From: Alphaproteobacteria bacterium
GTDB taxonomy: Bacteria; Pseudomonadota; Alphaproteobacteria; CAAHEQ01; UBA3637
Length of the DNA stretch: 64,000 nt
Direction of reading: 5' to 3'
NCBI GenBank assembly: GCA_017412085.1
Contig: JAFPYS010000019.1
Location: forward strand, 90,155-154,154
The notes under the pieces were generated by a model. It saw only the letters and a list, made by a program, of their open reading frames with translations, was not told the origin of the DNA and did not search any database. Both the position numbers and the translations under genes were made by a program. Shown piece by piece: positions 7,669 to 32,222 of this stretch. Position 1 is the first letter of the stretch. Each line of letters begins with the position of its first letter.

Positions 7669-7697
7669 TTTAAACGCCTTTGCTGGGCGTTTTTTTA
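7669..7697. terminator. bidirectional rho-independent terminator (tRNA-Glu on the plus strand, ABC transporter on the minus strand)
   Basis: Hairpin AACGCC-TTTGCT-GGCGTT flanked by an A-run upstream and a T-run downstream. Confidence 0.6.
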
Positions 7698-9473
7698 TTT
7701 CAATTGTGTTTTATAAAGGGATGCATACACGGAATCCGGATTGGCCAACAATTGGTCATGTGTTCCCATTTCCTTAATTTCCCCGTGATCGATCACAACA
7801 ATATTATCGGCATTTTTAACGGTGGACAAACGGTGGGCAATGATAAACACAGTCCGGTCTTTCATTAAGTTATAAATGGCCTGTTGCACAATCTCTTCTG
7901 ATTTATTATCCAAAGCGGATGTAGCCTCATCCAATATCACAATCGGTGCATTTTTCAAGAATGCCCGCGCAATGGCCACACGTTGCTTTTGTCCGCCGGA
8001 CAACTTTGTGCCGCGCTCCCCAATTTCAGAGTCTAAACCATTAGGTAGAGATTCAATAAATTCATCCAAACAGGCGTTATGGACTGCTTTTTTGACTTCT
8101 TCCGCTGTTGCATCTGCTTTGCCCAATAAAATGTTCTCTCTAATTGTACCAGCAAACAAAATATTATCTTGGAATACAATAGCAATATGATTGCGTAAAT
8201 CATCTAAATCAAGCTCTTTAACATTGATCCCGTCAATTTGGACAGATCCTTGCGTCACGTCATAAAAACGCGGTAAAAGTGTTACCAAAGTAGACTTACC
8301 ACCACCAGAATTCCCGACCAACGCAATTGTCTTGCCTTTATGAATTTCTAGATTAATGTCTTTCAAGACTGGGCGCCCCTTTTCATACTCAAACCATACA
8401 TGATCAAACACAATCTTATTGATTCCTTTAATATATCTTGGATGTTCACAGTTATGAATGGAAGGAATCGCCTCCAAACTGTCAAACACGCGGTCCATTG
8501 CCAAAAGCGACATCTGAAGCTTTGAATAGTTGCTTCCAATAGACTTGATTGGATGATAAAGCATCAACAAAGCTGTGATGAAGGACACAAATCCTCCAGG
8601 TGTTAACTTGTTGGATGTAATCAGATAGCTGCCCAACCAGATTACCCCTGCAATACCAATAGACACAATAAAGTGCATCATGGGCGTTAACATACCCGTC
8701 TTTTTGGTCATATTCATCCCTAATTTAAAGACTGAACGTAATGTTTCATTAAATTTATCACTGGCATATTTATAAAGATTGAAGGATGTAACAACTTTAT
8801 TACCCATAAACGCCTCGTTATAATGGGTCATAACGCGGGCTCCGGAAAATACTGTTTTATCCATGATGGACTTAATTTTACGCCGCAATCCAGCCAATGG
8901 TAAGAAAGCACCAAACATGACAATAATAGCAATAATGGACAATTGCCATGAGTTCCAAATTAAGACAAACACCAAAGAAATAGACGAAAATAAGCGAGTT
9001 GTAAATAGTTTTAGATTAGAAAGCAATCCACTACATGCAGTATCTGCATCATGGTTAAAACGTTGGATAACATTACCAGATGTGTTTTTATCAAAGAATT
9101 TTGCATCATTATGGATAAGTTTTTGGAACAAATCCTTCTTTAAATCCATTGTAATCTTTTGACCAACCCATGTATTTAAATATGTGGCAGCATAGTTTAA
9201 CAGACTTTGGGCAACGCTAAAGACAATGATAAGAGCTGGAATTAAAGAGGTTGCCTGCACACTCTTTTCAATCATCACCGTATCCATATAGGGTTTCAAT
9301 ACCCAAGCAATTGCTGCATCCATTGCACCCAACGGCAATGTTACTAATATCGCCAATATTGCCCGAAAGAGATATGGTTTAACATATGGATAAATCTTTC
9401 GATAATTGCGCACAAGATTTGTTTCTGTTAATTTTAATGGTAGTTTCATCCACGACCCTTCTCTTAAAGACAT
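7695..9473 (-). CDS. ABC transporter permease/ATPase fusion, MsbA-like lipid or glycolipid exporter
   Basis: 592 aa with six predicted TM helices, then Walker A GNSGGGKST, ABC signature LSGGQKQR and Walker B ILDEATSALD. Confidence 0.85.
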   Translation of the reverse strand: MSLREGSWMKLPLKLTETNLVRNYRKIYPYVKPYLFRAILAILVTLPLGAMDAAIAWVLKPYMDTVMIEKSVQATSLIPALIIVFSVAQSLLNYAATYLNTWVGQKITMDLKKDLFQKLIHNDAKFFDKNTSGNVIQRFNHDADTACSGLLSNLKLFTTRLFSSISLVFVLIWNSWQLSIIAIIVMFGAFLPLAGLRRKIKSIMDKTVFSGARVMTHYNEAFMGNKVVTSFNLYKYASDKFNETLRSVFKLGMNMTKKTGMLTPMMHFIVSIGIAGVIWLGSYLITSNKLTPGGFVSFITALLMLYHPIKSIGSNYSKLQMSLLAMDRVFDSLEAIPSIHNCEHPRYIKGINKIVFDHVWFEYEKGRPVLKDINLEIHKGKTIALVGNSGGGKSTLVTLLPRFYDVTQGSVQIDGINVKELDLDDLRNHIAIVFQDNILFAGTIRENILLGKADATAEEVKKAVHNACLDEFIESLPNGLDSEIGERGTKLSGGQKQRVAIARAFLKNAPIVILDEATSALDNKSEEIVQQAIYNLMKDRTVFIIAHRLSTVKNADNIVVIDHGEIKEMGTHDQLLANPDSVYASLYKTQLK

Positions 9474-9522: not shown

Positions 9523-10677
9523 TTATGTCTTATGGCTATTATTCTTTTTTTTATGATGGATCCAAATGGGAATTCCAAAGAGATATATTTTTTTAATAGT
9601 TCGACGTATATTCCTTTTGATTTTAATGATGGGAATACCAAGGATATAGAGTTTCTTTTTGCGATTACTTTTTATAAATTCATAAAGACGCCAAACAAAA
9701 CGGGGACGTTTTTCCAAATGTTCTATTTTTTGCAATAACAGCATATTTTGTACATTAAGTTTAGCTAGTATTTGATATAAATTGTTTAACTTATCAGTTT
9801 TTTTCTGTAAGTCCCCAACAGATTGTTTAATTTTTTCGAACTCATTTTCTTGCCCTGTCAGACAATTTTGAACTTGCTTATCAAATTTTGTAAAAATAGT
9901 CTTCAGAACAATTCCCAAATCTTCTGGTAAAACATATTTTAACCATAGCTCTGTTAATGGATAAAATACATTATCTAATGGTTTGTGTCCGGCGTAATGA
10001 ATTAAATTTTTATTACGGCTCTCGCTTAATTCAGCATAGTCCTTCCACTCATAAACATTGAAATAGTTCCACCGATAATCAGCATAAATGACATTATCTT
10101 GGCAGACTGCATTAAATATATCCTGTTCAGCATATTTTGTGCTTGGATTTTTTAAACGATGTTCATTCAATTTTACCAATAACTTATCTTGGCGTATTTT
10201 TTTCAAGTTTAATAACATAATACCACAATTAAAATAAAGATTTGGGTTTGTTTTTTTGGTTTCAATATCTTCTTTTTCCACCACTAAATCCGGAACAATT
10301 GCCGCATAATGATTCCCTAGAGTAATATTGTAAAAATCAGCTATATCATCAGTTGCAATTATATCACCATCAAGATATAAAACTTTATCCTCTTTCAATA
10401 AATCAGCAATTATAAATTTAAAATAAACGGCAGAAGTTATATAGGGATGCTTAAAATTCATATCTTTGTAGATGTTTTTTTGTCGCAAGATTATAATTTC
10501 AACATTTTTACTTAAAAATTGTGAAAATTGAGCCACAGAAGTGTCAGATAAATCCACAGCAATAATATAAATCCTTAGTTTTTCTTTTTGGGTTTTGACA
10601 AGAGAATTTATAGCAGTCTTTGTTAACAAGACATAATTTTCATCACAAATAAAACAGATGTTCATTTTATGATCCAT
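9523..10677 (-). CDS. family 8 glycosyltransferase (LPS alpha-galactosyl/glucosyltransferase-like) with a C-terminal coiled-coil and duplicated LGIPI-KIK tail
   Basis: Its N-terminal half carries the GT8 hallmarks ICFICDENY and YLDGDIIATDD (DxD). The last 45 aa read LYILGIPIIKIKRN...IYLFGIPIWIHHKK. Confidence 0.75.
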   Translation of the reverse strand: MDHKMNICFICDENYVLLTKTAINSLVKTQKEKLRIYIIAVDLSDTSVAQFSQFLSKNVEIIILRQKNIYKDMNFKHPYITSAVYFKFIIADLLKEDKVLYLDGDIIATDDIADFYNITLGNHYAAIVPDLVVEKEDIETKKTNPNLYFNCGIMLLNLKKIRQDKLLVKLNEHRLKNPSTKYAEQDIFNAVCQDNVIYADYRWNYFNVYEWKDYAELSESRNKNLIHYAGHKPLDNVFYPLTELWLKYVLPEDLGIVLKTIFTKFDKQVQNCLTGQENEFEKIKQSVGDLQKKTDKLNNLYQILAKLNVQNMLLLQKIEHLEKRPRFVWRLYEFIKSNRKKKLYILGIPIIKIKRNIRRTIKKIYLFGIPIWIHHKKKNNSHKT

Positions 10678-10692
10678 TATCTTTACTCCAAA

Positions 10693-12855
10693 TTAACGAC
10701 AAATCTTTTTTAGTACAGGAATTCCTAAAAAATAGTACCGAATTTTGGTGTGTGATGAATTTGTTTTTATCTTTAAGATAGGAATTCCCAAAACTTTTAT
10801 TTTTGCTTTGTTTTGCTTTCTCTTATAACTGAACAATGGAATCAATCCAAACAGATAGCTTTTCATTTTATTCATCTCCTTCTTTGTTGTTAATAATGTT
10901 TGATGATTTAGATGGTGCTCCAATAATGATGTAAAATATTGTGCAATCCATTCTTGTTTTTCAAGTTTTGCTCCCAACTGAATTGCTTTGTTTAAAGGCA
11001 TTTTTAAGAATGAATAATGAACTAAATTCTGAGCATCCAACGCTGTTAACTGGTGGTATTGACCGTAATTTTGAAAGAGTGCTGTTATCACATCTGCTTT
11101 GACTGCAGCTGTATTCGACGATATCCCTCCCAGTCTATAACAAATAATAAATGGCTCAATCATTGTAATTCGTTTAGCGGCCTGTAACATCTTATACATA
11201 AAGGCTGTGTCAGAAGATACCTTATAATCTAAATCATAAAGTCCTAATTCTTTCATCACATCAGTTTTAATTAAAAATGTTTGATGACAAGCATGCTGAC
11301 CGAAGATCAATGAACGAGTTTGATAACAACTCCACAAACTTTTCACATCCATTGTTTTCTCATCAATAGATTTTGCACTTGCACAACACGCATCTGCATC
11401 TTGTTCTTCAGCCTTTTTCACCAACCATTCTAATCCCCGATCATCACAATAAAAATCATCTGAGTTCAAAACAACCACATATTTCCCCTTGGCCTTTAAA
11501 ATGCCTTTATTAATGGCGTCATACAGCCCCCTATCTGGTTCAGAATAATACGTAATCCACCCCTTTTCTTTATATTCTTTTAAGACATCTAATGTGCCAT
11601 CTTTTGAACCACCATCTATCACAATATGTTCAATATTCTTATACGTTTGATTATGAGCGCTAGTAATACTTTGAATAAAGGTTTTTTCGCGATTTTGTTT
11701 AATTAAATTAAATGTGGGTGTAATAATTGTAACGAGTGGTTTCTGATTTTTACGTTTTTCAACCTCTTCCATTTTATTTAAAATAACATCAACTGTTTTT
11801 TCCCAAGAAAACAGTTTGGAACGTTTCAGACCATTCTGGGCCATTTCATCACGATATTTTTTATCAAAATAATATTTTTCATAGGCTTTTACGTGTTGTT
11901 CGTCACTATCCCAATCGATCATTTGTCCCGCATCACCAACAACTTCCGGTAAACTAGTGTTATTAGATGTAATGACAGGACAACCACAGGCCATAGCCTC
12001 CAAGGGAGGCATACCAAATCCTTCATATTGCGAGGTATAAACAAACCATTCAGCATTGCTGTATAGGACTTCCAAATCTTCATCGTCCACATAACCAGCC
12101 CGAATAATTTTATCTTTATATTTCGAAAAATTTGGAATTTGTTCAGCCCATTTTTCAGCATCTTGCATTACATCTTTACCTGCGATAACATAGACCATAT
12201 TATCAATTTTATTTTGGTCAATAAACTCAAGAAATGTTTTAATACACCGCAGCAAATTTTTTCTGGGATCTAAAGAAGAACAAGAAAAAATAAATTTTTT
12301 ATTCAATGGAATATGATATTTATCTAATATCTTTTTTAATAAGTTTTTATCTTTATTCGGTTTATATGAAAAATTTGCTGCATTTGGAGCAACTATCATA
12401 TTTTTTTCATCGATCTGTGGCCAATACTTTAAAAAATCACGCTTTGTATAACGAGAAACAACAAAATAAAAATCATCCTCTCTGAACGAATTGACTAATT
12501 CACCAAACCAACTATTTGCTCTTCCAAAATAACGGGGCAATAAAAATGGGATGCAATCATGTAAAATAGTGTACCGAGAAATGTGAGGATACTGACGAAT
12601 AAAATCGGGTATTTTATAACTCGGTGATAAAAAAACATCTATTTTTGAAAAATCTCTCCCTTTATAAAAAATGTGATCTTCAGGAAAAGATTTGGTAAGC
12701 ATAGAAAGATCTTTTAGATGAGCTTGTTCTTCAAGATATAGATACAAATTAACGTTCCTTTTTCGAAATTCATTAAATATATTTTGTAAAACGAAAAAAA
12801 TTCCGGAACGACTTCCTAACTTTCCCAACAAACGGACATCCAAGCAAATATTCAT
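10693..12855 (-). CDS. bifunctional glycosyltransferase with N-terminal GT4 (group 1) and C-terminal GT2 domains
   Basis: GT4 motif [33 protein letters not shown], then GT2 motif VTIITPTFN...[11 protein letters not shown]. The C-terminal tail has three LGIPI-type repeats. Its ATG overlaps the stop of the upstream gene (ATGA). Confidence 0.8.
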
Positions 12856-15128
12856 TTTTTATTCCTTTTCCCTAAATTATTAATTAAATATTTTTCCAAT
12901 CGTTCACAAAAACTGGATTTATAATAGAAGAATAAATTTTGCTGTTCCTTCTCCTTAGCAGATAATTGAAAATGATTCTTTGCGTAATAATCTAGAGTTT
13001 TTATGAGGTGTTCTTTATTTTTAATAATATTGGGTAATAAATTCTCTTTGCCTAAATATGGATCAACGACATCCAAAACATGTCCATATTTTTGACAATC
13101 TTCTGCATCGTTAAGCGAATAAAAAAGAACAGGCTTTTCTTGGAAAAAGAATTCAAAACACATTGATGAATAATCCGTTATTAACAAAGATGCTATTTGT
13201 TTTATTTTGAAAATATCATCTTCACCAACTAAATCAATATTCATTTTCTGTAAAACGGGAGACAAAAGATCTGCAACAGAATGATGAAGGGCTATTTTAA
13301 TTTTGATATTATGAACATTCTTCTTAATACAATCCAAAATATCACATATATTCCTTACATATTGACTATCTTTAAGATTTTGAATTTGGGAAAGATAACG
13401 TCTTGTTGTAAAGAAAATAAGAATAAACTTTTCTGATTGCTCCAGTGCAGAATTATGAATACCATCCCAACGCATCAAACCATTTTTGATAATATCTTGA
13501 GTTTTAAAATTCCCTCGTTTAATAAATAATTGTTTTTCCATATCATTAGAAACCAAAACTTTATCAAAGATGTTTTTACCATAAACGTTGGGCATAATGA
13601 AATCCGGTTTAAAAAAAGTAACACCATGTTGCATAAAAATAGAGGTCATATGAGATGTATTTTTAACAATATTATGAAACCCAAAAGGAATAGCTGTAAT
13701 AGCTTGGAAACTATCAAAAACATATCTTAATCTAGGTACTAAAAACAAAAAACACAATTTTAAACGCCATGTTGGAGTAGTCCCAGAATTCCAAAAGATA
13801 ACATGTTTACCATATTTTCGAGCTAATTCTTGACGATATGGTGACTGCGAGTTCAATATGTAATAAGGAACTAATTTCCATTTTTTTTGATCATATAGAT
13901 ATTTAAAAAAAGTAAAATTATCTTGAATGTTGGCATTTGCTTCAAAAATGTTATCCATCAGCAATACAACATTGCGTTTAAACGGAATGCGATTAACGTT
14001 TTTCAAAATCTTTTCAAAAAAGTTAGATTTTTTTCTATTGGGATTATTTAATTTTATTTTTAACAATAAAAGACATCCTAATAAATATATTTTTATTTTA
14101 CCTGGCTTTTCCCTGATTTTAATAATTGGCAAAAAATTAAATAATTTATAGGTGGTTACATCGGAAATTTTTTCAAAATGGGATTGAATACTTTTTTGAT
14201 TAACAATTGCTTTTTCCTCTATCCAATCCAGTATTTTGGTTCTTTCTTTGGACCATTTGGCATAACCAGTTTGGATATATTTTATTGCATTTTCCTGAAT
14301 TTTTCTGATATTCCCCAATTGAATTGGTTGTGGATTTTGGGGATCATACAAATAGCCATTTACACCGTTTGTAATATATTCATTCATTGTTGGATTATTT
14401 GGAGCAATCACACATCTCCCCATAGCCATTGCTTCCAAAAAGCTCATTCCAATCCCTTCGTATAATCTGGGGGCAATATAAATTGCTGATTTCTGTTGTA
14501 TTTGCAACATTTCTTCTTTTGTATTAAACCATTCAGAATAAGTTATCTTCCATTTTGAATCTGGTGAGGGATCCATAAAAGTATGAGCTGGGTCTAAAGC
14601 CTTATGAATATGTAAGCGAGTGATTGAATTTCCCATCAAAAGCTTCTCAATAAGAAGTACGTTTATTGGGGTAATTCTTTGCCAGAAAAAAACAGATTTT
14701 GTATCCCCCATATTACCTATTTTTTGAGAGGGTTCTGGAAAATATTGGATATAGTGTGAAGAAAAACCGAGTTTACTCAATTCTTCATGCAATGTACGGC
14801 TGAAATTAATAATTTGAGTAAAACGATATTCGTACCAAATAGGATTATTCCGACTGGGAATACCATCATACATCGGGAAAAAAACACTTTTTTTAAAGGA
14901 AATAAGTTTTTTTAGTTTCTCTAAAGAAGGCATGATTTGCAACAAGACCAATATATCATATTGTTTTCCTTTCAATGGAGCAAAATGGGAATTTATCTCA
15001 TCCTTATATGGATCAAATGAAAACACATCTACAGTATATTTTTTTTCTAATACAGATAATAAAAATAAATTTGATTTGGTTTTATTGTGATAGGCGTGGC
15101 CAATATACAGTAGCTTTTTCTTTTTCAT
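12852..15128 (-). CDS. GT4 glycosyltransferase fused to a TagF-like CDP-glycerol glycerophosphotransferase domain
   Basis: GT4 motif YEGIGMSFLEAMAMGRCVIAPNNPTMNEYITNG in the N-terminal third. The C-terminal region carries the TagB/TagF hallmark ITDYSSMCFEFFFQEKPVLFY. An internal linker has LPIIKIREK...IYLLGCLLLLKIK motifs. Confidence 0.7.
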   Translation of the reverse strand: MKKKKLLYIGHAYHNKTKSNLFLLSVLEKKYTVDVFSFDPYKDEINSHFAPLKGKQYDILVLLQIMPSLEKLKKLISFKKSVFFPMYDGIPSRNNPIWYEYRFTQIINFSRTLHEELSKLGFSSHYIQYFPEPSQKIGNMGDTKSVFFWQRITPINVLLIEKLLMGNSITRLHIHKALDPAHTFMDPSPDSKWKITYSEWFNTKEEMLQIQQKSAIYIAPRLYEGIGMSFLEAMAMGRCVIAPNNPTMNEYITNGVNGYLYDPQNPQPIQLGNIRKIQENAIKYIQTGYAKWSKERTKILDWIEEKAIVNQKSIQSHFEKISDVTTYKLFNFLPIIKIREKPGKIKIYLLGCLLLLKIKLNNPNRKKSNFFEKILKNVNRIPFKRNVVLLMDNIFEANANIQDNFTFFKYLYDQKKWKLVPYYILNSQSPYRQELARKYGKHVIFWNSGTTPTWRLKLCFLFLVPRLRYVFDSFQAITAIPFGFHNIVKNTSHMTSIFMQHGVTFFKPDFIMPNVYGKNIFDKVLVSNDMEKQLFIKRGNFKTQDIIKNGLMRWDGIHNSALEQSEKFILIFFTTRRYLSQIQNLKDSQYVRNICDILDCIKKNVHNIKIKIALHHSVADLLSPVLQKMNIDLVGEDDIFKIKQIASLLITDYSSMCFEFFFQEKPVLFYSLNDAEDCQKYGHVLDVVDPYLGKENLLPNIIKNKEHLIKTLDYYAKNHFQLSAKEKEQQNLFFYYKSSFCERLEKYLINNLGKRNKK

Positions 15129-15138
15129 TTTTACTCTT

Positions 15139-16317
15139 TTACTTTAAATCGAAAATTTGTTGTGTGGTTTTATCCCAGGTGAATTGTTGCGCGCGCTGGA
15201 GACCTTTTAGCGATAATTCCTGGCGTTTTGAAGGATTACTATATAAATCCCCCATGACATGGGCCATCTTTTTTGCATCTGTTTCTGGCACATATAGTGC
15301 GACATCGCCCCCTACTTCCGGTAAGGAAGAATTGTGGCATGTGATAACAGGCGTACCGCATTGCATCGCCTCTAAGACAGGCAACCCAAAGCCTTCGTAT
15401 AAACTGGGATAAAGAAAAGCAGTTGCTTCAGAATAAAGTGCTGGCATGTCTGAATCAGCAACAAAACCCGTGCAGATAATCTTATTTGCGTATTCAGGAT
15501 AGTTTTGAATTTTTTCTTGTAATTTTTCATAATGACGACCTTTAGGGCCTGCAAAAACCAACGAAATATCCTTTGCTTCTATCTGATTTAAGAATTTTAC
15601 AAATGAATTTAAAATGTGTATAAAATTTTTTCTAGGATTGTGGTCTGAAACCGCCAAAAAATACTTTTGCGTCGGGATATGATATTTTTCTTTAATAGCA
15701 TTTGATTTTGAAGGTTTAAATTTAGAATCAGCTGCTAAATATACCACTTTCGTATTTTTATTGATATAATCGGGTCGAAATTTAAAAAAATCAATCTTTG
15801 TTGCATCAGAAACACAGATAACTTCATCAGCTTTCACTTGTTTAATCCAGGAACGATACTTCTTTACAAAACCAGGAGAACAGGTTTCTGGCATAATCAA
15901 GGGAATTAAATCATGAATAAACATTCTTGTTTTAATCTGGCTTTTATAAATAATTGGAGAAATGGGAGAAAATAAACTAAGGTATTCATCATATTGCCTT
16001 AATTGCTTCATATATTCATGAAAGTATTTTTGAGTCAAAAAATAACAATATGCTTTTTTATAAAGATTATATTTTTGTGTTGTCTTTTTTAGGTACGGCA
16101 TTCTGACAATATTAGGAACCAAATATCCAAGTCCTTTGTCTTCTAAATATTTTACTGGATCGACACCTTTTTTTGTCGTAACAATCGGGTAAACTTCATA
16201 CTCTTTTTGTTTGGAAATACGCTTCAAAACTTCCAAAGAAACACGACAAATCCCCGTCTCTCGCCCCGCACTCATTAATAACTGCTCAATATCATAAAGA
16301 AGCTTGATTTTTTTCAT
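15139..16317 (-). CDS. GT4 (group 1) glycosyltransferase
   Basis: Motif YPSLYEGFGLPVLEAMQCGTPVITCHNSSLPEVGGD. Start set at the ATG at 16317, which overlaps the stop of the cytidylyltransferase gene as ATGA. Confidence 0.8.
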   Translation of the reverse strand: MKKIKLLYDIEQLLMSAGRETGICRVSLEVLKRISKQKEYEVYPIVTTKKGVDPVKYLEDKGLGYLVPNIVRMPYLKKTTQKYNLYKKAYCYFLTQKYFHEYMKQLRQYDEYLSLFSPISPIIYKSQIKTRMFIHDLIPLIMPETCSPGFVKKYRSWIKQVKADEVICVSDATKIDFFKFRPDYINKNTKVVYLAADSKFKPSKSNAIKEKYHIPTQKYFLAVSDHNPRKNFIHILNSFVKFLNQIEAKDISLVFAGPKGRHYEKLQEKIQNYPEYANKIICTGFVADSDMPALYSEATAFLYPSLYEGFGLPVLEAMQCGTPVITCHNSSLPEVGGDVALYVPETDAKKMAHVMGDLYSNPSKRQELSLKGLQRAQQFTWDKTTQQIFDLK

Positions 16318-16748
16318 TGCTGATTCCATTTCTTTAAAATCCAACTAGATGAATTTGCCTTATGAGAACCGCCAATACCAAAGACTTTTTCAACATGACA
16401 TTCTTGACATACATCATCTTCGCGAATGTTCTCTTTTCCTCGATCTCCCCCATTCGCGAATACCAATACATCATGGGGATACATTTGTCGCACTTTACGA
16501 ATTCCATCACTGGCCGAGTTATCTGAATCATCAAAACCTAACGCACAAATAACTCCTTTTAAATTTTCGCAAATTGTTTTTCGTGTATTGAAGTTTTGAA
16601 AAGCTTTTCCCTTCTTACGGATTAACCATTCATCGGAATTAACCAAAACAACTACACCATCACTTGCCTCCGCCGAGGCCTTTATCATTTCAATATGCCC
16701 CTCATGAATGGGATCAAATCCTCCGCTGACAATATAATATTTTGCCAT
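16314..16748 (-). CDS. cytidylyltransferase-fold nucleotidyltransferase (TagD-like or HldE domain II-like)
   Basis: 144 aa with the (H/T)xGH motif SGGFDPIHEGH, and NSDEW...KGK and LVFANGGD segments that align to HldE domain II (FDILHAGH, NSD...KG, LVKGGDY). Confidence 0.7.
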   Translation of the reverse strand: MAKYYIVSGGFDPIHEGHIEMIKASAEASDGVVVLVNSDEWLIRKKGKAFQNFNTRKTICENLKGVICALGFDDSDNSASDGIRKVRQMYPHDVLVFANGGDRGKENIREDDVCQECHVEKVFGIGGSHKANSSSWILKKWNQQ

Positions 16749-17238: not shown

Positions 17239-19974
17239 CTATACAAATTTATCCAGCACACTTGACCAACGACTTACCTTGTCGGCATAGGTTGTTTGAA
17301 TGCTGGAATAAGCTTTTGCCCTTGATTTTAACATTAACACCCGACCTTCTACGTTGCGTGTGTAAATCACTTTACAATAACCAATATGTTTTTGCCAGTT
17401 ATTTTTAAAAATATTCGCCATTTCTTTGTTTTCAGATAAAATCTCTGGTAAAGCATGATAATCTTTTTGTTGCCACCATTTAACATTTGTATTTTGGCGC
17501 ACCAACAAGTACCTAGGATTATCAATCGGATCCAAGAATTGTTTCATGGCATTAATAAAGACATGATTATCTTTTTGATTTAGGCCGATCGCACTCACTG
17601 TATAATGAACACCTGGAATCTTTTTAACCTTTAGCAACGCTGCTTTTGGGGACGTGTTAATGGCATCTATCTCATATAAACTTTCTAACATCACAAGACC
17701 GATTTGTTCCAACATTTTTTCAGGACGTCCCGCCCTTAGAACTTTCCAAGTCGGAATCAACATAGCCACTATAAATACAGCGATAATTAATCCATATACC
17801 CACAAAGGCGCCATATTATCGTAAGCGATCTTACAGGCTTGATAAGCAAGGAATCCATAAGCGATAAGCATCGTGAAATAAGCATCCACAAAAGGTAATG
17901 TCTTTACTTTATTATTTGTGTCCAGTTCTTGTTTAACAGACCCGATGCCGACTTTTGATTCCTTTACAATTCCTTTTTCCCAAGCTGTTTTTGTTTCCTC
18001 GCGTGTATAAGCAAGTGCTTTTTCATTCAATTCGTCCAATTTCTTTTCTTTTAATTTAGTTGATTTTGTTCCCCATAGACAACGATCCATCCCATTCGTA
18101 ATATCATAAGGCGGCAATAAGCTTGGCGCTTCATAACCAGCAAAGCGACGACTTAAAGATTCAAAATCGCCACCGATATCGCCCTCTTCTCCCTTCCAAT
18201 TATCCACAATATTAAACACTTTGATGTTTGCCAGGTGCCAAATATGCGAAATCTTATCCGGATGATTTTTATCGACACGGATGGCGCGTCCCCGCATTTG
18301 GTTTGAAAGCATATAAGATGCCACGGCACTAGACAACACCAACGAGTTAATACTTGGAGCATCCCAACCTTCGCCCAACAAAGCCTGTGTCCCAACCATA
18401 ATCGTCAAATGACCACCATTAAACAAGTCTGTAATTAAATCCACAATCTTGGATTTTGCCTTTTCCTTTGGCTTAACCGTCACATAATCTGGATAATATT
18501 TAAAGGATGAAAAAGTTACATCGGACTTGTTCAAATTGGCTTTTTCCATTAAATCGACCAAAGGTTTTTCCGCATTTTTTGGAAGTAAGATAATTTGTCC
18601 GGTTAAAATACCAATACTGGCTTTTGGCAAATGAAGTGCCTCCAAGTGTCTGAAAATCGGTACCACACCCAAAGCATCTACCTTAGTCTCAAAGGCATCA
18701 TGCTTAATCAAATCGGCCAAAATTACCATCCGCAAGTCAGCTCCTAACAGGCTATGCTCACGTTTTACAATTTCCTCAATGGCGTCTAATTTCCCGAGAC
18801 TGCGAGCCAATGTTTGTGCAACCGAAGCATTATTTTGAATTTGCACAGATTTGTTTTCAATCAAGTTTGCCTTGGCCGCTTTTTGATGCAGAGAGTTAAT
18901 TTGATCGGCCAATTCGGGATACTTTTCCCCGTGTTTAAAAATTAAACCATTTAACACACGTTCGATCTCTGGTAATGTCAAGCGAGGCAACTCTTCGCCA
19001 GTTGCCTGAAAAATTTCCAAAAATGGCTTGGCAATTTCTTTCTTTTGAGTTTTTAAATAGCTTGACAAAGCAAGATAAAATTCTGGATCATCAAACAATT
19101 CCACCAAAAAAGGATCTGGATTATTCCAAAAAGAAAGCTGTTGAACAGCCGCGCCAAATTCTTCGTTTTTTAAAAAATCATCTACAAACGCTTTTGCCGC
19201 TTGTTCATGCTGAGCCAAAGCTTGTTTTTCTTCTTCGCGCAAATGAGCAAAGTAAATCAAGTCTTGATGTGGACATAAATCCCCAGCCTGCACCAACTCA
19301 GGGATGCTGATTTCGGCATCAACGGGACCACATAAAGCTTCATACCGATCCCATTCGTGCCGATCCACATCATAGGGAGGCGTTGCCGTTAAAGCCACAG
19401 TTTTTTTAAGGCTCATGTGCTCCATCAAATATTCCAAAGCCTTCCACCATTCTTTGCGCAGGTGATGGGCTTCATCCAAACACAGCACTTCGATCTTGGC
19501 TTTCTTTAAAATCTCGACCAACTTTAACGCTTTTTCTTCGTTTAAGCGTGACAATTTTTGAGCGCGCTTTTCCGCCTGCTCTTCCAAGGCGGACACTTCC
19601 TCGTCCGTTAAATCTTCTTTGACATCCTTTTCCACTTGACCGCTTAAGCCCGCCAACAATCCTTGATAGGTTGAAAGGGTGATTGTTTTGGGCGCCAAGA
19701 TATTTGTGGAAATCATGTCATCCGCAATCTTTTTGTTGGTCAAAAAGGCCTGTTTTAAACGGGATGCCCATTGATGTTTAATCGTGATTGTCGGCGTTAA
19801 AATCAAACAAGGTTTTGCAATACGGCGCAAAACCTCCAATCCCAAGATGGTTTTGCCGGCGCCAGGGGCCGCCACAATGTGTAATTTTTCGTCTTCAATG
19901 TGATTGTCCAAATCGTCCAAAATCGCCTGTTGATAGGATCGCCATTTGCCTTGAAATTGTAAATCTTTAAACAT
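17239..19974 (-). CDS. SF2 DEAD/DEAH-box helicase-family protein with a C-terminal membrane-associated extension
   Basis: 911 aa. Motif I AAPGAGKT, motif II LDEAHH, motif III TATP, motif VI QMRGRAIR. The C-terminal 300 aa contain two predicted TM helices (FTMLIAYGFLAYQACKIAY and LWVYGLIIAVFIVAMLIPTW). Confidence 0.8.
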   Translation of the reverse strand: MFKDLQFQGKWRSYQQAILDDLDNHIEDEKLHIVAAPGAGKTILGLEVLRRIAKPCLILTPTITIKHQWASRLKQAFLTNKKIADDMISTNILAPKTITLSTYQGLLAGLSGQVEKDVKEDLTDEEVSALEEQAEKRAQKLSRLNEEKALKLVEILKKAKIEVLCLDEAHHLRKEWWKALEYLMEHMSLKKTVALTATPPYDVDRHEWDRYEALCGPVDAEISIPELVQAGDLCPHQDLIYFAHLREEEKQALAQHEQAAKAFVDDFLKNEEFGAAVQQLSFWNNPDPFLVELFDDPEFYLALSSYLKTQKKEIAKPFLEIFQATGEELPRLTLPEIERVLNGLIFKHGEKYPELADQINSLHQKAAKANLIENKSVQIQNNASVAQTLARSLGKLDAIEEIVKREHSLLGADLRMVILADLIKHDAFETKVDALGVVPIFRHLEALHLPKASIGILTGQIILLPKNAEKPLVDLMEKANLNKSDVTFSSFKYYPDYVTVKPKEKAKSKIVDLITDLFNGGHLTIMVGTQALLGEGWDAPSINSLVLSSAVASYMLSNQMRGRAIRVDKNHPDKISHIWHLANIKVFNIVDNWKGEEGDIGGDFESLSRRFAGYEAPSLLPPYDITNGMDRCLWGTKSTKLKEKKLDELNEKALAYTREETKTAWEKGIVKESKVGIGSVKQELDTNNKVKTLPFVDAYFTMLIAYGFLAYQACKIAYDNMAPLWVYGLIIAVFIVAMLIPTWKVLRAGRPEKMLEQIGLVMLESLYEIDAINTSPKAALLKVKKIPGVHYTVSAIGLNQKDNHVFINAMKQFLDPIDNPRYLLVRQNTNVKWWQQKDYHALPEILSENKEMANIFKNNWQKHIGYCKVIYTRNVEGRVLMLKSRAKAYSSIQTTYADKVSRWSSVLDKFV

Positions 19975-19991: not shown

Positions 19992-20984
19992 TTATCGTTC
20001 TTTTGGTGCGTATTTAGCCAAAGTCACCGCCACAGGACTTTCAAATGGTTTGGCCAGTTGTTTTTGTTGTTCCAACTTTTCCATTTCTTTTTTGTGCTTT
20101 TGTAATCTCTCAAAGGTCATCAAACCAGACAGGGCGGCACAAAACCCCAAAAAACCACGCTCCATTATAGGCAGATTTGGTGCAAATAGGGCAGTTGGTA
20201 TAGCCATAGCAGCACCAGATGCCCGTACAGCTAGACCGGCCACATACGATTTTCTGTCGGCGTCTTTCAACTTTTCATGTTCAGCATTAAACCATTGTGC
20301 CACACCAGCCGCGGTTTCTTGAATGCCATGTTTTTTCACGCTATCCATCAAGGTCAATGGATCCGCCATGGCCAGACCAACCAGTGCTGGCATTTTATCA
20401 AAACGCTCTGACGGCAATTGTTCATATAGCTCTGCAAATACCCTGCGATATTTCATGTATTGCTCGTCTGTTAAAAACGACACCTTTTCTTCCCGATTTT
20501 TCTTAATCATTTTGGCAAAGAAATTGTATTCTTTTTTGCTGTCTAAACCATTATTCAAAGAATCAAAGAAATCATCAAATTTTAATGCATACTTCCATCT
20601 ATGCAAAGAATAAAGTGTTTCACAAAAATCGGCATATTTATCTAAATTAACATGACCTTCTGTATCAACTTCACCATCTCTTGCATCAAACATTTTCAAG
20701 ATTTTTTCAGGGCAAACATATTTTACTCCACGACGTAATATTGCTATTCCCAATTCCGGAACAGGAACACCACACACTTTTCCAAAACCATGATCTGGCC
20801 GAACCAACAAAAATCGTTCGCGCAATTCTTTTCTGGCCGCCTTAGCACCCTCGGTCAAATCCCACGCAGAAAATTCGTGTTCCTCCACCTTTAGAAAGGC
20901 ATTAATTTCTTCCTCCCGCAGCTTGATCTGATGGCGGATCCAATCTTTTTCATCATTGAAATTTGTGTGTTTGTGCGATTCCAT
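19992..20984 (-). CDS. hypothetical protein (paralog of the next gene) with a C-terminal bilobed hydrophobic segment
   Basis: 330 aa. About 45% identical over the C-terminal 200 aa to the 313-aa neighbour (FDKMPxALGLAMAD, SVKKxG, GVAxWFxAE). Hydrophobic hairpin AGLAVRASGAAMAIPTALFAPNLPIMERGFLGFCAALSGLM. Confidence 0.65.
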   Translation of the reverse strand: MESHKHTNFNDEKDWIRHQIKLREEEINAFLKVEEHEFSAWDLTEGAKAARKELRERFLLVRPDHGFGKVCGVPVPELGIAILRRGVKYVCPEKILKMFDARDGEVDTEGHVNLDKYADFCETLYSLHRWKYALKFDDFFDSLNNGLDSKKEYNFFAKMIKKNREEKVSFLTDEQYMKYRRVFAELYEQLPSERFDKMPALVGLAMADPLTLMDSVKKHGIQETAAGVAQWFNAEHEKLKDADRKSYVAGLAVRASGAAMAIPTALFAPNLPIMERGFLGFCAALSGLMTFERLQKHKKEMEKLEQQKQLAKPFESPVAVTLAKYAPKER

Positions 20985-20996
20985 TTCAGCACCTTC

Positions 20997-21938
20997 TTAT
21001 CTTGATGGGCTGTATTTATCAAAAATCGCGGCCACCTTGCCCAGGTTGCTTTCACCCTTCTCTTGTTTGTTTTCATCGTGTTTTTTCAGCTGATAAAGGG
21101 CCAACCAACCAGATACCGCCGCCACAGCGCCCAAAAGACCACGACCAACCATCGGCATATTCGGTGTAAAGACGGCCGTTGGCAACGCCACGGAAGCGCC
21201 CGTGATGCCCGCAACAAGGCCCACTTTTCTGCGGACTTCTTTTTTGTGTTTCGCACGTTCAGCATCAAACCATTCTGCAACACCTCTTGCTGTTTTTTCA
21301 GGACCATATTTTTTCACGCTGTTGATCAAAATGGCCGAATCTGCCATAGCCAAACCCAATGCCTGAGGCATTTTATCAAAGCGTGGTCTTCCATCAAACA
21401 AATCGGAGGGCAATTGATCATAAACGTCCACAAACACCTTGCGATAGTTTTCGCGTTCATCTTCGGATAAAAAAGATATTTTTTCGTTTTGATTTTTACC
21501 AATCAATTTAAGAAAGTATGCCATCTCAAAAGACTTCAAACCACCCCAAAAATTCCCAGTGTCTATATACGCTTTCCAAAATTCGTATTCGTGTAGCGCG
21601 GCAGTATAAATAAAATATTTTTTATACAAACGTGGATTGACCTGAATTCCATATCCTGGTTCGTCATGGAACATCTTCATCATTACTTTGGGGCTAATGT
21701 GATTCAACCCTTGACACATCCTGGCCAACCCTAATTCATCAGAACCGGTATGTAACATTGGATGCACCCCAATACCATTTTTGTCCCAAGTGTCAATCAA
21801 CATGTCACGTAAATCTTTCTTGTTGGAGTCGGCCTCCATAGATGCATCCCATGCGGAAAGATCCTCCGCTTCATCATCCTCTTCCGGACGAAATGTTTTT
21901 TCTAACGCTTTTACTGTTCTGAGAGCGTCTTCGGCCAT
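20997..21938 (-). CDS. hypothetical protein (tandem paralog) with a C-terminal bilobed hydrophobic segment
   Basis: 313 aa. Shares blocks with the 330-aa neighbour. Hydrophobic hairpin VGLVAGITGASVALPTAVFTPNMPMVGRGLLGAVAAVSGWLALY. Confidence 0.65.
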   Translation of the reverse strand: MAEDALRTVKALEKTFRPEEDDEAEDLSAWDASMEADSNKKDLRDMLIDTWDKNGIGVHPMLHTGSDELGLARMCQGLNHISPKVMMKMFHDEPGYGIQVNPRLYKKYFIYTAALHEYEFWKAYIDTGNFWGGLKSFEMAYFLKLIGKNQNEKISFLSEDERENYRKVFVDVYDQLPSDLFDGRPRFDKMPQALGLAMADSAILINSVKKYGPEKTARGVAEWFDAERAKHKKEVRRKVGLVAGITGASVALPTAVFTPNMPMVGRGLLGAVAAVSGWLALYQLKKHDENKQEKGESNLGKVAAIFDKYSPSR

Positions 21939-22000
21939 TGCACGAGGAAACTCACCTTTTGCTTATCATTCAATGACATGCTTCTCATTGTATCTACTCC

Positions 22001-22543
22001 TTAAAAATAACGTTTCAACATAGCTTCTAATGCTTTACCATGACGGGCTTCATCACGCGCCATTTCATGCACAGAATCATGAATTGCATCCAAATTCAAT
22101 TCCTTGGCCTTCTTGGCAATAGCGGTCTTTCCATGGCAAGCACCATTTTCACCAGCCAACATTTTTTCCAAATTGGCTTTGGTGTCAGCGGATACTAATT
22201 CACCCAACATTTCCGCAAAACGGGCAGCATGTTCAGCTTCCTCATGTGCGATTTTATCCAGCGCCATAGCGATTTCCGGATAACCTTCACGCAAGGCCTG
22301 ACGGGACATGGCCAAGTACATGCCGACTTCAGAACATTCACCATTAAAATTGTTGCGTAATCCTTCCACAATTTCAGCATCCACACCTTTGGCAATACCA
22401 ATAGCATGTTCAGCGGCCCATGTCATTTCTTCTTCCTTATATGGGACAACCTTATCACCAGTTACCTTACACACAGGGCATTGTGGTGTCTCACCATCAG
22501 CCACATCAAAAACTTGTCCACAAACTAAACATTTATATTTCAT
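22001..22543 (-). CDS. reverse rubrerythrin (N-terminal rubredoxin-like Cys4 domain plus a di-iron ferritin-like domain)
   Basis: CLVCGQ...CPVC, then EEAEHAARF and DEARHGKAL (ExxH di-iron ligands). Start set at MKYKC, which has a GGAG RBS; the upstream ORF extension is ignored. Confidence 0.75.
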
Positions 22544-22559
22544 ATTTTTCTCCTTTAAA

Positions 22560-23375
22560 TTATTTACGACGAATACGCAGGTGCCACCAGAAAATACCCC
22601 CATGCATACTTTTTTCTGTTTTGGATACACGATCGCTTGCTGGCACAAATAAATGCACCGGTTTTGATCCATCTCTTCCCAATTTCGTAGCTAATTTATC
22701 CTGGCTTCCATCTCCACCACGGGTCAAATTCATTGGATCTTCAATTTTTAACTCGGATGCTATCTCTTGTGGAGTATGTTCACGTAATACCTTATTCAAT
22801 TCAGCGGGATGAATTGTCTGTAACAAAAAGTCGGCATATCTTGCCTCGCCGCCCTTGTGAGGGACAGTATTTTGAATGGCTTCATAAACGCGATAATAAT
22901 CGTTGAAATATTGAACACGCTCTTCATAATCCATTTCATTGGCAATATTCTCAACCTTTTCCACCTGTTCTTTGGCCAAAGTACGACGACTTGTTTGTGG
23001 TCCATGAATTTCGCCTTCATCCATAAAATCATCAAGTTGTTTAGATTTTGCCAAATACGTAAAAAGTTCTGTCATTTTGGGGGTTAATAAAATCTTATTG
23101 GGATTCTTCGGTGGATAATGAGCAAACACATCCTTTGCCCACAGAATCGCCTCTTTGTACGAAGCACCATTGCGCAGTATATAAACAACTGTAGCATACT
23201 GATGCGCTACAGAATCGGCGGGAAATTTATCATCACAACGCGCATATTGAACCTCCGATTCCCATGGCATTTGAATTATCCATGTCGGACTATAAAAATA
23301 GGCAACCATTTTGAAAACGCGCTCAAGATAATAACGGGCTTGATTGGCCTGAACCTTCAAATTCATCGGATTCAT
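22560..23375 (-). CDS. hypothetical protein (271 aa)
   Basis: Long ORF with coding-like composition and no recognisable motifs. Confidence 0.55.
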
Positions 23376-25992: not shown

Positions 25993-26703
25993 TTATTCCT
26001 TACCATAAGGTTTACGATACAGCGCAAGTTTCGCTTCAACTGTATCCAACACATCCCGTTGTTGAGATGGCGTTAACCGATCCAATTCGGAAAAGATAGC
26101 CATTTTTTTCATTTTTAATGTATCTTGTTTCTGTACTTCTGGTTTCTGATCTTTCTTCGCTTCCTCAACTTTTACATTTAATATGTCGGAACGATCTTGA
26201 GGACGAACGATACAAAGTCCGTCATCCGCAAAAGTAAAGAAAGCATGGCGTGAATCTTCTTCTCTTAAACCTGGATTACTTAAGCCAATCATTAATGGAT
26301 GTTTCGAATCATATGGATCATAAAACATGCAAACCCCAGCACCATCGGGATAAGAATGATAGATTTTGGGATATGTGTAATCATCAACAATTCGGGCTAA
26401 ATAATGCAATCCTGGTTGCAAATATCTCACGATACCCAATCTTAATTGTTCAGACAAATCCAATCCTTCGTCCAACAAATGATAATTCATTGCTTCGCCC
26501 ATAGGACCTTTAAAGAAATCCATACTCATCTTTTTAACACCATTATAAGCAACATCAATTTTCTTGAGTTTACCATGATCAAGGGTTAATTCAAAAGCTG
26601 TGGATTCTTCTTTGGGATTTACTTTAGACTTATATTTATCCGACAGGGTGATCTTAAATTGCTTATCACCAATTTTTTCTTTTGTTAAATAGAGTGGACG
26701 CAT
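25993..26703 (-). CDS. hypothetical protein (236 aa)
   Basis: ORF with an AGGAG RBS before MRPLYLTKEK. No family recognised. Confidence 0.55.
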   Translation of the reverse strand: MRPLYLTKEKIGDKQFKITLSDKYKSKVNPKEESTAFELTLDHGKLKKIDVAYNGVKKMSMDFFKGPMGEAMNYHLLDEGLDLSEQLRLGIVRYLQPGLHYLARIVDDYTYPKIYHSYPDGAGVCMFYDPYDSKHPLMIGLSNPGLREEDSRHAFFTFADDGLCIVRPQDRSDILNVKVEEAKKDQKPEVQKQDTLKMKKMAIFSELDRLTPSQQRDVLDTVEAKLALYRKPYGKE

Positions 26704-26778
26704 ATTAAAAACTCCTAGATATATGTTTCCCTCAACCATCGATCAGCATAGCAAAAAATGAAGAACTTGTCAAGTTAT

Positions 26779-30821: not shown

Positions 30822-32222
30822 ATGCAACCAAAACAACACCCAGGTCATCCTGAACCGGTTTCAGGATCTTATCATAATAAAGAAATTCTGAAACGCGCTG
30901 TGCTTGTTCAGAATGACAGATGCACAGATTCTGGCCGCAGCATGGTGGAAATGCTGGGCATGTTGGCAATTATGGGATTGTTGGGCATTGCAGCGATTTA
31001 TGGCATCCAAATGGCCATGAACAAGACGAAAGCAAATCAAATTATAAAAGATGGACGTTTAGCACATACTTCGTTAATTACAGATCCTATGGCATCGGAG
31101 TCTCCATGGCAAGACGCTGGCTTTACCCCTCTTTCCGATAAAACAATTCAAAAATGTATAAATGCCAACCAGCAACCTCTTGTGAAAGTGCAAGATGTCC
31201 AACCTTCTGTCTGTAAAGAGTTATTACAATACACGGGAATGGGAGAAGTTAAATTTTATAATGCTGTTGCGGGAAACACCTGTTCGGCTAGCGCAAACGA
31301 ACTAACCACCTGTGGTGATCAAAACCAAGATATTGTCATTTTATTTGACGCCAATGGGATGTCTGACGAATCGGGAGACGATACTGGATGCCGAACCGCT
31401 GCCGACTGCGATAACGGGTGGTGTAATAACGGCGAATGTGTGCCCTGCCCGGATTATCAACAGCCCAACGAACAAGGCGATGGCTGTACCGCAAATTGTA
31501 AGCAAGAAACACAAGATCGTTGTGGGATTGGCGAAGGAGACGACGCCATTGATTGGTGTTGTGACAAAGAATTACAGTGTGGTTCAGAACCCGGCACTTG
31601 TTCCGATGGAACATGCAGTTGGGAATTTCATCAGTTCGCGCCCAAAGCGACATGTCAATGGACTTTTGAACAAAAAGCCCCTCATAGCGATTGCACGGTT
31701 ACCTTGACCTATAATGCCGGCGGCACAGAGGTCACGGATGTCACCACAACCGGTTGTGCAGATTCTGGTGAATATTGTTATGTGGCTTATACAGATGCTG
31801 ATTGCGATGCCACAAATCATGCGGTTCAAAATGGTTCCACCGGCACATTACATGGTGTGTGCAACGCCATGACAACGGTAAATACAACCTGTGTGCCAGA
31901 ACTTACTTACACATCGTCAGGTTGCGATACCGCCGGACAATATTGTTATTTGTACTACACAGACCAAGGGTGCAGCACCCCCGCCGGTAATAGTGCAACA
32001 ACGCTTTATGGTGTGTGCCAAGGCATGACAACGGTCAATACAACCTGCGTTCCAGAAATCACCATGGAAGAAAAAACTTATTGCCAATCTGGTGAATATT
32101 GTTATCTGAAATGGGCGACAAATACAGCTTGCACCGAGCTTACGAACGGCGCCAGCGATGTCCTGTATGGCACATGCATCGCCCAAAACGCCGCCTCAGG
32201 CAGCTGCCCGTATAATCATTAA
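30822..32222 (+). CDS. type IV pilin-like (prepilin N-terminal cleavage/methylation motif) secreted protein with three Cys-rich tandem repeats
   Basis: G|RSMVEMLGMLAIMGLLGIAAIYG follows the class III signal pattern (Gly-1, Glu+5, hydrophobic helix). The C-terminal half has three ~55-aa repeats ending in MTTVNTTCVPE and containing GEYCY...LYGVC. Confidence 0.65.
   Translation: MQPKQHPGHPEPVSGSYHNKEILKRAVLVQNDRCTDSGRSMVEMLGMLAIMGLLGIAAIYGIQMAMNKTKANQIIKDGRLAHTSLITDPMASESPWQDAGFTPLSDKTIQKCINANQQPLVKVQDVQPSVCKELLQYTGMGEVKFYNAVAGNTCSASANELTTCGDQNQDIVILFDANGMSDESGDDTGCRTAADCDNGWCNNGECVPCPDYQQPNEQGDGCTANCKQETQDRCGIGEGDDAIDWCCDKELQCGSEPGTCSDGTCSWEFHQFAPKATCQWTFEQKAPHSDCTVTLTYNAGGTEVTDVTTTGCADSGEYCYVAYTDADCDATNHAVQNGSTGTLHGVCNAMTTVNTTCVPELTYTSSGCDTAGQYCYLYYTDQGCSTPAGNSATTLYGVCQGMTTVNTTCVPEITMEEKTYCQSGEYCYLKWATNTACTELTNGASDVLYGTCIAQNAASGSCPYNH

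Follow-up and report, generated by a model that had tools for sequence, protein, structure and literature searches.

Two adjacent minus-strand genes, here called A and B, are paralogs, intact and under selection, that belong to an orphan protein family and lie in a 64,000-nucleotide (nt) stretch of an alphaproteobacterial genome (GenBank assembly GCA_017412085.1, contig JAFPYS010000019.1, positions 90,155 to 154,154), which is referred to as the window in the following. Across related genomes the family occupies one chromosomal slot, between a gene for rubrerythrin and a gene for an XPB/Rad25-like superfamily 2 (SF2) helicase, and this slot holds zero, one or two members that are drawn from at least five subtypes. 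To judge from the sequence comparisons, recombination exchanges the cassette separately from the genes on either side. Orphan families are common in metagenome-assembled genomes (MAGs); what is new here is the cassette behaviour in front of a widespread membrane helicase. As a tentative interpretation, the two proteins may act in the inner membrane as variable, conflict-type sensor-effector modules with a logic like that of SLATT proteins.

The related contexts have a backbone in common, composed of genes for an SNF transporter, a Hexapep protein, a NUDIX protein, rubrerythrin, the helicase and a TSCPD-domain protein, and they vary at the slot. One context (L004) has no member at all, although its helicase is 83% identical. 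A single member is found in three contexts (L013, L011 and L016), and two members are present in the window and in L001, L009, L015 and L018. The subtypes are deep: A-type, B-type, the type comprising P0006 and P0007, P0009 and P0010 are mutually 30-38% identical, compared with 81-99% identity among the flanking proteins, and P0012 is more distant still. Between the window and L001, for example, the NUDIX proteins are 99% and the Hexapep proteins 96% identical, and the genes in the second position of the slot belong to different subtypes with about 33% identity.

Evidence for an exchange that is decoupled from the flanks comes from pairwise comparisons of the window with its relatives, in which substitution rates were estimated by the Nei-Gojobori method for family genes and for their neighbours in the same genome pairs. 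In comparison with L016, whose copy is 94.5% identical to B, the nucleotide identity along B is 90-99%, with a synonymous distance (dS) of 0.11. To the left of B, rubrerythrin is 86% identical with a dS of 1.09; to the right, the helicase falls from 95% to about 50-60% nucleotide identity, with 59% amino acid identity and a dS of 3.65. The reverse pattern is found in comparison with L013, where the helicase is 75-89% and B 35-74% identical. A chimeric join at the junction of B and the helicase in L016 is argued against by L015, a Joint Genome Institute (JGI) contig from a separate sequencing project, in which B and the initial 54 nt of the helicase gene are identical to those of L016. The gene upstream of B is an A-type gene in L015 and rubrerythrin in L016. 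Between the window and L001, finally, A has a dS of 0.55 and its neighbours have values of 1.0-2.0, a difference which recombination of the cassette independently of its flanks would explain.

The members of the family also evolve faster than the genes around them. The ratio of nonsynonymous to synonymous rates (omega) is 0.19-0.45 in family members and 0.01-0.06 in the helicase, rubrerythrin, NUDIX, Hexapep and SNF genes, so that the family rate is about 3-45 times that of the flanking genes. Within the proteins the N-terminal region is the fastest part (omega 0.3-0.65), and the core and the hydrophobic hairpin are the slowest. An earlier note on this DNA, made from the letters alone, had described a duplicated and rapidly diverging family, and the rate estimates agree with this description.

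The same note had proposed that A and B form a tandem paralog pair. Both open reading frames (ORFs) are present, and the BLASTP alignment of their products, 302 columns long, has 36% identity with 57% positives (E 3e-59), which places the paralogy far beyond chance. The conserved blocks that the note had quoted, RFDKMPQALGLAMAD and SVKKYGPEKTARGVAEWFDAE, are found in A and have counterparts in B. In contrast to its statement that the similarity is limited to the C-terminal ~200 residues, the homology spans almost the whole length (residues 34-327 of B against residues 23-311 of A), with 25% identity in the N-terminal part and 54% in the core. Of the N-terminal thirds, which the note had called acidic, that of A is acidic (isoelectric point 4.7) and that of B only mildly so (6.0). 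The sequence is AT-rich only to a moderate degree, the GC content of the window being about 40%. The product of A is identical to the NCBI hypothetical protein II938_04195.

All occurrences of the family that were found come from one small clade of Alphaproteobacteria in the ruminant gut. It forms 7 clusters among 5.8 billion proteins, and an exhaustive search of 1.84 billion representatives with a hidden Markov model (HMM) returned 8 matches, 1 of them spurious. A pattern-based scan of 185,579 species genomes yielded a single locus, in the goat-abomasum MAG RGIG1600, and a scan of JGI metagenomes yielded a single contig (L015). No family member was found in the viral contigs, phages and plasmids searched, and every named source is a goat or ruminant-gut MAG labelled Alphaproteobacteria. 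A and B matched no family in Pfam, NCBIfam, PADLOC or PHROG, and Foldseek gave no structural match in the PDB or in BFVD. The absence of recognisable homology, as reported in the earlier note, is thus upheld by profile and structure searches, and a match to a conserved housekeeping family, which the note had named as evidence against its own view, did not appear. One further candidate was dropped: P0013, a helicase with seven C-terminal repeats that match family positions 72-131, reached 10.5 bits with the broader A3 HMM and had scattered unrelated Pfam matches.

The annotated start of A deserves a comment, because it is an internal methionine. Alignment of the DNA with L001 and L009, together with its translation, places the ancestral start codon at 21986-21988, where it has been severed from the gene by a 1-nt deletion; the 25-codon stub that remains overlaps the annotated start (Table 1). 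The same deletion is found in two other assemblies of the locus (L018 and L019) and is therefore probably real. In this strain A would either be translated from the internal methionine or be expressed poorly.

Table 1. Coordinates of the gene pair, its parts and the neighbouring genes in the window (position 1 is the first nucleotide of the 64,000).
Feature	Position	Strand	Description
TSCPD-domain protein, 83 aa	16979-17230	-	8 nt downstream of the helicase; also after the helicase in L004, L005, L013 and L018
XPB/Rad25-like SF2 helicase, 911 aa	17239-19974	-	Pfam ResIII and DEAD; hydrophobic segments at residues 692-740; C-terminal alpha/beta domain of unknown fold
Membrane-anchor region of the helicase, residues 692-740	17755-17901	-	From hydropathy and comparison of homologs
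Paralog B, 330 aa	19992-20984	-	
Hydrophobic hairpin of B, residues 248-291	20112-20243	-	Arg within lobe 1
Paralog A, 313 aa as annotated	20997-21938	-	All-alpha soluble domain, hydrophobic hairpin and basic tail
Hydrophobic hairpin of A, residues 239-282	21093-21224	-	VGLVAGITGASVALPTAVF - TPNMPMVGRG - LLGAVAAVSGWLALY
Conserved core block of A, residues 140-236	21231-21521	-	KNQxEK...YRKxFVDVY..LPSxRFDKMPxxLGLAMAD...SVKKYG...W; invariant or near-invariant columns; lowest omega together with the hairpin
Remnant of the ancestral 5' end of A	21911-21988	-	ATG, GGAG ribosome-binding site and 8 codons MRSMSLND as in the N-terminus of ortholog P0003, then the 1-nt deletion, giving a 25-codon stub
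Rubrerythrin, 180 aa	22001-22543	-	Conserved upstream boundary of the slot; compared across related contexts
Orphan protein U, 271 aa	22560-23375	-	No hydrophobic segment; 5 clusters worldwide

Each of the two proteins consists of three parts: an all-alpha domain of about 235 residues, a Gly/Ala-rich helical hairpin and a basic tail of 30-40 residues that ends in a conserved VAxxLxKYxP motif. An AlphaFold2 model of A, built with the 8-sequence family alignment, has a mean predicted local distance difference test score (pLDDT) of 72. Residues 1-235 are modelled confidently, most blocks scoring 71-94 and the block of residues 21-30 only 54. Lobe 1 of the hairpin continues a long helix that begins at residue 213, and this helix is followed by a turn (258-263) and a second helix (264-292); the hairpin and the tail have pLDDT values below 50, that is, they show no confident packing on the domain. 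The earlier note had let each protein end with a two-lobed hydrophobic stretch of about 45 residues, interrupted by a short turn. Lobes and turn are indeed present, but the stretch is not terminal, as the polar basic tail comes after it.

Conservation is concentrated in few places. In the 8-sequence alignment it is strongest in KNxxEK, LPSxRFDK, GLAMAD, a Trp at position 223 and the tip of the hairpin, which is short and proline-rich and belongs to the turn motif AVFTPNMPMVGRG (residues 255-267 of A). The invariant residues of tip and lobe 2 in this alignment (A1) are P253, T254, A255, F257, P259, N260, R266, G267, G270, A273, A274, S276 and G277, most of which stay invariant or nearly so when the alignment is extended to 12 sequences. 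Ladders of the small-xxx-small type run along both lobes, and together with the Pro/Asn/Arg-Gly tip they constitute the best conserved part of the protein. This degree of conservation exceeds what a passive membrane anchor needs. The two-lobe layout is kept even in P0012, which is 19% identical.

A membrane location of A and B is moderately probable. With many Gly, Ala and Ser residues, the lobes reach only marginal hydrophobicity: Kyte-Doolittle means over 19 residues are 1.1-1.9, and Wimley-White octanol sums range from about -3 to +3 kcal/mol, compared with -12 for the second transmembrane (TM) segment of the neighbouring helicase (residues 722-740). In A, nine Lys or Arg residues precede lobe 1 within 25 residues and more basic residues come after lobe 2, so that, if the hairpin inserts, a cytoplasmic location of both termini would be favoured; this argument is weaker for B, in which the flanking charges are near-balanced. 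A hydropathy scan detected no N-terminal signal-like hydrophobic segment in either protein.

Alternatively, the hairpin could be a buried or oligomerising Ala/Gly-zipper helix pair of a soluble protein. Most of its Kyte-Doolittle values are below the classical 1.6, its Wimley-White sums are about 0 kcal/mol (+3.2 for lobe 1 of B), its uncharged runs comprise only 16-21 residues, and small-xxx-small ladders suit tight packing in any environment. On the other hand, AlphaFold2 leaves the hairpin unpacked; the helix pair buried in the core of a soluble fold, the second outcome that the earlier note had named as speaking against it, was not obtained. Furthermore, about 45 residues are nearly free of charge and in A are flanked by basic clusters, the two-lobe layout persists in the distant member P0012, and the weak profile matches of this region are almost all to membrane or two-TM (2TM) families in Pfam, and mostly so in NCBIfam. 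We therefore regard a soluble hairpin as unlikely.

A two-lobed hairpin had led the earlier note to suggest secreted effectors that insert into host-derived membranes, in the manner of Inc proteins. Formally the layout agrees: the lobes measure ~19 and 16-19 residues and the turn 6-9 residues, and an Inc domain is described as a pair of helices, each 15-32 residues long, joined by a loop of 3-22 (PMC3048545). The hydrophobicity is marginal, at Kyte-Doolittle values of 1.1-1.9 and about 0 kcal/mol on the Wimley-White scale. Both groups possess a two-lobed hydrophobic domain of 40-60 residues with a short turn, and both are paralogous, fast-evolving and lineage-specific, the present family being duplicated as well. 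However, Inc proteins are described as restricted to Chlamydiae, with type III secretion and localisation at the inclusion as their defining features, and a bilobed domain by itself is no guarantee of translocation (PMC3048545). The family fails on the phylum, since its sources are gut MAGs labelled Alphaproteobacteria, and nothing indicates type III secretion or an intracellular life. The scanned ORFs of the window are of the housekeeping kind, encoding RNase J, PtsP, the Suf system, Mfd, TrkA, PBP2, glycosyltransferases and an ABC exporter, and include no component of a secretion system. The hydrophobic domains of Inc proteins are usually located near the N-terminus and are strongly hydrophobic; here the hairpin is C-terminal, Gly/Ala-rich and near 0 kcal/mol, and the genes are tightly packed on the same strand with a cytoplasmic SF2 helicase. 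Secreted effectors are thus highly improbable. The secretion part of the host-membrane idea is not supported, and the membrane-associated part stays plausible, as no housekeeping family was matched and AlphaFold2 does not bury the hairpin.

The genes of the array are all on the same strand and are separated by short gaps: 62 nt between the rubrerythrin stop and the start of A, 12 nt between A and B, 17 nt between B and the helicase, and 8 nt between the helicase and the TSCPD gene. B and the helicase each have their own ribosome-binding site. A consensus scan placed neither a terminator nor a promoter in the gaps, and its counts were not significantly above the shuffled expectation. We infer co-transcription of the array from its spacing only.

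This arrangement leads to the main rival of the conflict-module interpretation: A and B could be accessory or adaptor subunits of the membrane-anchored helicase, docking by hairpin-hairpin contacts or by the KYxP tail, and the complex would have an ordinary role in DNA or RNA metabolism. A member lies directly upstream of the helicase in the window and in L013, L011, L015, L016 and L018, which are all contexts with a visible downstream gene except L012. The gaps of 12, 17 and 8 nt, the separate ribosome-binding sites and the lack of a terminator-like site in the gaps are in agreement with such a role, as is the combination of cytoplasmic domains with a helical hairpin in helicase and family alike. 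Nevertheless, the helicase is found without a member in the close relative L004 and in all five more distant lineages examined (L006, L007, L017, L020 and L021), which suggests that the family is a lineage-specific addition before an older gene. Near-identical copies of B stand beside helicases that are only 59% identical to each other, and the omega values of the two differ about 10-fold, which is unexpected for obligate partners. In L012 the gene after the member is not the helicase, and all cases of adjacency come from one clade and may reflect shared ancestry rather than function. A role as helicase subunit is therefore possible, though we consider it doubtful.

The helicase itself has archaeal XPB/Rad25 proteins (6p4f, 6p66 and 2fwr) as its nearest solved relatives, all of them distant PDB matches, and it is a member of a large family, for which over 3,000 matches were obtained, full-length at about 910 residues. 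Of 117 homologs, 110 retain its strongly hydrophobic segment at residues 722-740; the weaker one at 692-710 is above threshold in 7 of the 117. The C-terminal alpha/beta domain, with the motif NPRYLL...DY.A.P...YTR..EGR, is modelled with a pLDDT of 81 and has no match in the PDB. In PADLOC-DB v2 the helicase obtains only weak core matches (PbeA, type I restriction enzymes and similar). A NUDIX gene recurs close to the helicase in the window, L004, L006 and L020, the two genes overlapping in the last of these. Full-length helicase homologs are also found in two virome contigs that GenBank lists as 'UNVERIFIED: Bacteriophage sp.', L020 (MT836806.1) and L021 (MT838455.1); L020 looks like a bacterial chromosome rather than a phage, because it otherwise carries NUDIX, CPBP protease and amino-acid ABC transporter genes. 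The protein P0017 (1,374 residues), considered as a fusion of a family member with the helicase, was rejected, as it contains an exact internal tandem duplication of about 460 residues of the helicase, probably an artefact of metagenome assembly.

Our preferred, still tentative, interpretation of A and B as conflict modules is based on four observations: an orphan family with two modules, a variable slot, a fast-evolving soluble domain, and an exchange decoupled from the flanks. According to this hypothesis the proteins would remain in the inner membrane of the bacterium itself, and both termini would face the cytoplasm. The fast-evolving soluble domain would sense a signal, upon which the conserved Gly/Ala-zipper hairpin would oligomerise and the membrane would be perturbed. 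As variable modules the proteins might serve in phage defence or abortive infection, and the adjacent helicase would possibly be the coupled enzyme. A bolder version, which we consider rather improbable, is that cassette and helicase constitute an undescribed type of defence system, in which the helicase would be the motor or sensor platform and the hairpin proteins, possibly together with the orphan protein U, would be swappable specificity and membrane-effector modules. The swapping of cassettes might then, with the same reservation, be compared to the shuffling of hsdS specificity genes, here on a membrane effector with a new fold. The confidence that we attach to the alternatives concerns partly independent questions, namely function and topology, and is not meant to sum to one.

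Several observations weigh against the conflict-module interpretation. The helicase is under strong purifying selection and is alone in most genomes, and may therefore be no more than the border of a recombination hotspot. Only this family (with U nearby) is found in the slot, unlike in typical defence islands with their mixture of systems, and A, B and U have no match in PADLOC-DB v2 at E up to 1. Most defence genes have a broader distribution than this family, which is restricted to one clade and did not appear in the mobile-element collections searched. The confirmation of L016 by L015 ends after the initial 54 nt of the helicase, and past that point L016 may be a partial chimera. Insertion into a membrane is also only putative, as the hydrophobicity is marginal for a TM helix and B has both an Arg in lobe 1 and near-balanced flanks.

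If the conflict-module interpretation is true, the slot is a compact natural case of modular membrane-effector exchange at a fixed hotspot in an uncultured gut lineage, and the function of the membrane-anchored SF2 helicases, a very large family with over 3,000 relatives in gut bacteria, would become approachable for the first time. If it is wrong, the label of an Inc-like effector is still removed from a gut bacterium with no indicated intracellular lifestyle, and the combination of an orphan all-alpha fold with a conserved Gly/Ala-zipper hairpin is still documented.

The surroundings of the slot vary as well. Protein U accompanies the A-type gene wherever the upstream context is visible (window, L001, L009, L018 and L019). 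Rubrerythrin lies between the two in the window, and they are directly adjacent in L001 and L009, so that the position of rubrerythrin relative to the cassette varies too. By eye, a YxxxYxVYxxxxxxP block might make U a third, hairpin-less paralog, but hhalign assigns a probability of only 9% and homology of U to A and B is not supported. The mechanical ORF of rubrerythrin, with 223 residues, includes a spurious upstream ATG (extra 22544-22672, minus strand) and overlaps the end of U; the orthologs have 180 residues beginning with MKYKCLVCG, which corresponds to position 22543 of the window.

Directly downstream of the helicase and TSCPD genes, the region 9523-16748 (minus strand) has a low GC content of 29-35%, compared with ~40%, and encodes glycosyltransferases of families GT1, GT2, GT4 and GT8, a glycerophosphotransferase and a cytidylyltransferase, followed by an ABC exporter at 7695-9473. 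At the same position L005 carries rhamnose/FdtA genes, and L013 a single GT4 gene and then PtsP; the region looks like a variable surface-polysaccharide island. A second unannotated and fast-diverging family is represented by a 248-residue ORF with no Pfam match upstream of the SNF transporter (25993-26739, minus strand), which is 56-67% identical to its counterparts (L001, 3640-5102; L013, 2673-3404), while the flanking proteins are 81-99% identical. In L001 this family is tandemly duplicated, with a paralog that is 25-27% identical. On the minority strand, a 466-residue ORF (30822-32222, plus strand) has no Pfam match at E up to 1e-5. Over the window as a whole (1-64000), GC skew is negative in nearly all 2-kb bins and cumulative skew goes steadily down; together with the majority of minus-strand genes, this suggests that the window lies inside one replichore and carries no signal of an origin or a terminus.

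Among the known systems with which the family can be compared, three show a resemblance of limited extent. The first is PspM (Rv2743c), which recruits PspA to the membrane in mycobacteria, and by analogy A and B might be envelope-stress scaffolds, in which two TM helices recruit a cytoplasmic partner. The profiles resemble each other weakly across the basic helix and the Ala/Gly-rich 2TM hairpin: the three A-type C-terminal segments tested and the family consensus all match the NCBIfam model PspM_Rv2743c at 14-20 bits, and some match the Pfam model Rv2743c at 15-17 bits. These scores are far below the respective cutoffs (at most 20 bits against 80 for NF047839, and at most 16.8 against 27.7 for PF25587), the B-type and the other subtypes have no match, organism and gene context differ, and no PspA-like gene was found among the neighbours scanned. 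Hypervariable and recombining behaviour would also be unexpected of a stress scaffold, and this explanation is very unlikely.

The second resemblance concerns the HARP domain of SMARCAL1 (PDB 4o66), an accessory module of an SF2 motor. The family block YRKAFVDVYxxLPSDRFDK...D..L..SVKK aligns with the HARP core YNQELIAVFKSLPSRHYDS...DYRALMKAVER at E 0.012. However, this is an 18-bit match to one PDB chain only, no HARP family turned up when the consensus and five core segments were scanned against Pfam (E up to 10), and the local structure is predicted to be largely helical; the candidate was rejected and the match is treated as chance. The third is the XPB-Bax1 pair, in which, as here, an XPB-like SF2 helicase stands beside a lineage-variable partner gene. 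In contrast to that pair, the A/B family is all-alpha with a hydrophobic hairpin, and the helicase has a membrane anchor of its own. A comparison of the family profile with all PDB chains (a library that includes 6p4f and 6p66), at E up to 10, gave four unrelated chains and no Bax1.

The closest parallel in kind is that with SLATT proteins. SLATT_1 (PF18181) is the most recurrent weak Pfam match, obtained by 5 of 8 members with a best score of 20.1 bits (E 7e-4) over model positions 8-92 of 122; the NCBIfam model SLATT_1 (NF033634) gives 14-17 bits, with a maximum of 16.9. When the C-terminal region was shuffled within its segments, so that the hydropathy layout was kept, none of nine shuffled sequences matched SLATT_1, and other membrane families reached about 15 bits; the best SLATT_1 match is therefore somewhat above background. 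Formal membership is not supported, the cutoffs being 26.3 bits in Pfam and 41 in NCBIfam, and the unrelated 2TM model of PspM/Rv2743c scores equal to SLATT_1, with the B-type matching neither; both points speak against a SLATT-like function. Remote homology of the family to SLATT proteins is possible in view of the shuffled controls. None of the neighbours (rubrerythrin, NUDIX, Hexapep, SF2 helicase and TSCPD) is a SMODS, SLOG or reverse transcriptase partner.

Further differences from SLATT systems are the 235-residue N-terminal all-alpha domain, which has no relatives, and the restriction to one clade, in addition to scores below threshold, the missing SMODS, SLOG or reverse transcriptase and the lack of signal in the B-type. 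What A and B have in common with SLATT_1 and with SLATT-5 of DRT10/UG17 is a C-terminal helix followed by a two-helix hydrophobic hairpin, and a gene that lies tightly upstream of that of a nucleic-acid enzyme and has a history discordant with it. In DRT10 a SLATT gene is tightly coupled upstream of a reverse transcriptase, and the phylogenies of the components are incongruent (bioRxiv 10.64898/2026.04.29.721553). By the tests run, the family fits no described family, and the kind of system that it resembles is a known one: a variable hairpin effector module beside a nucleic-acid enzyme.

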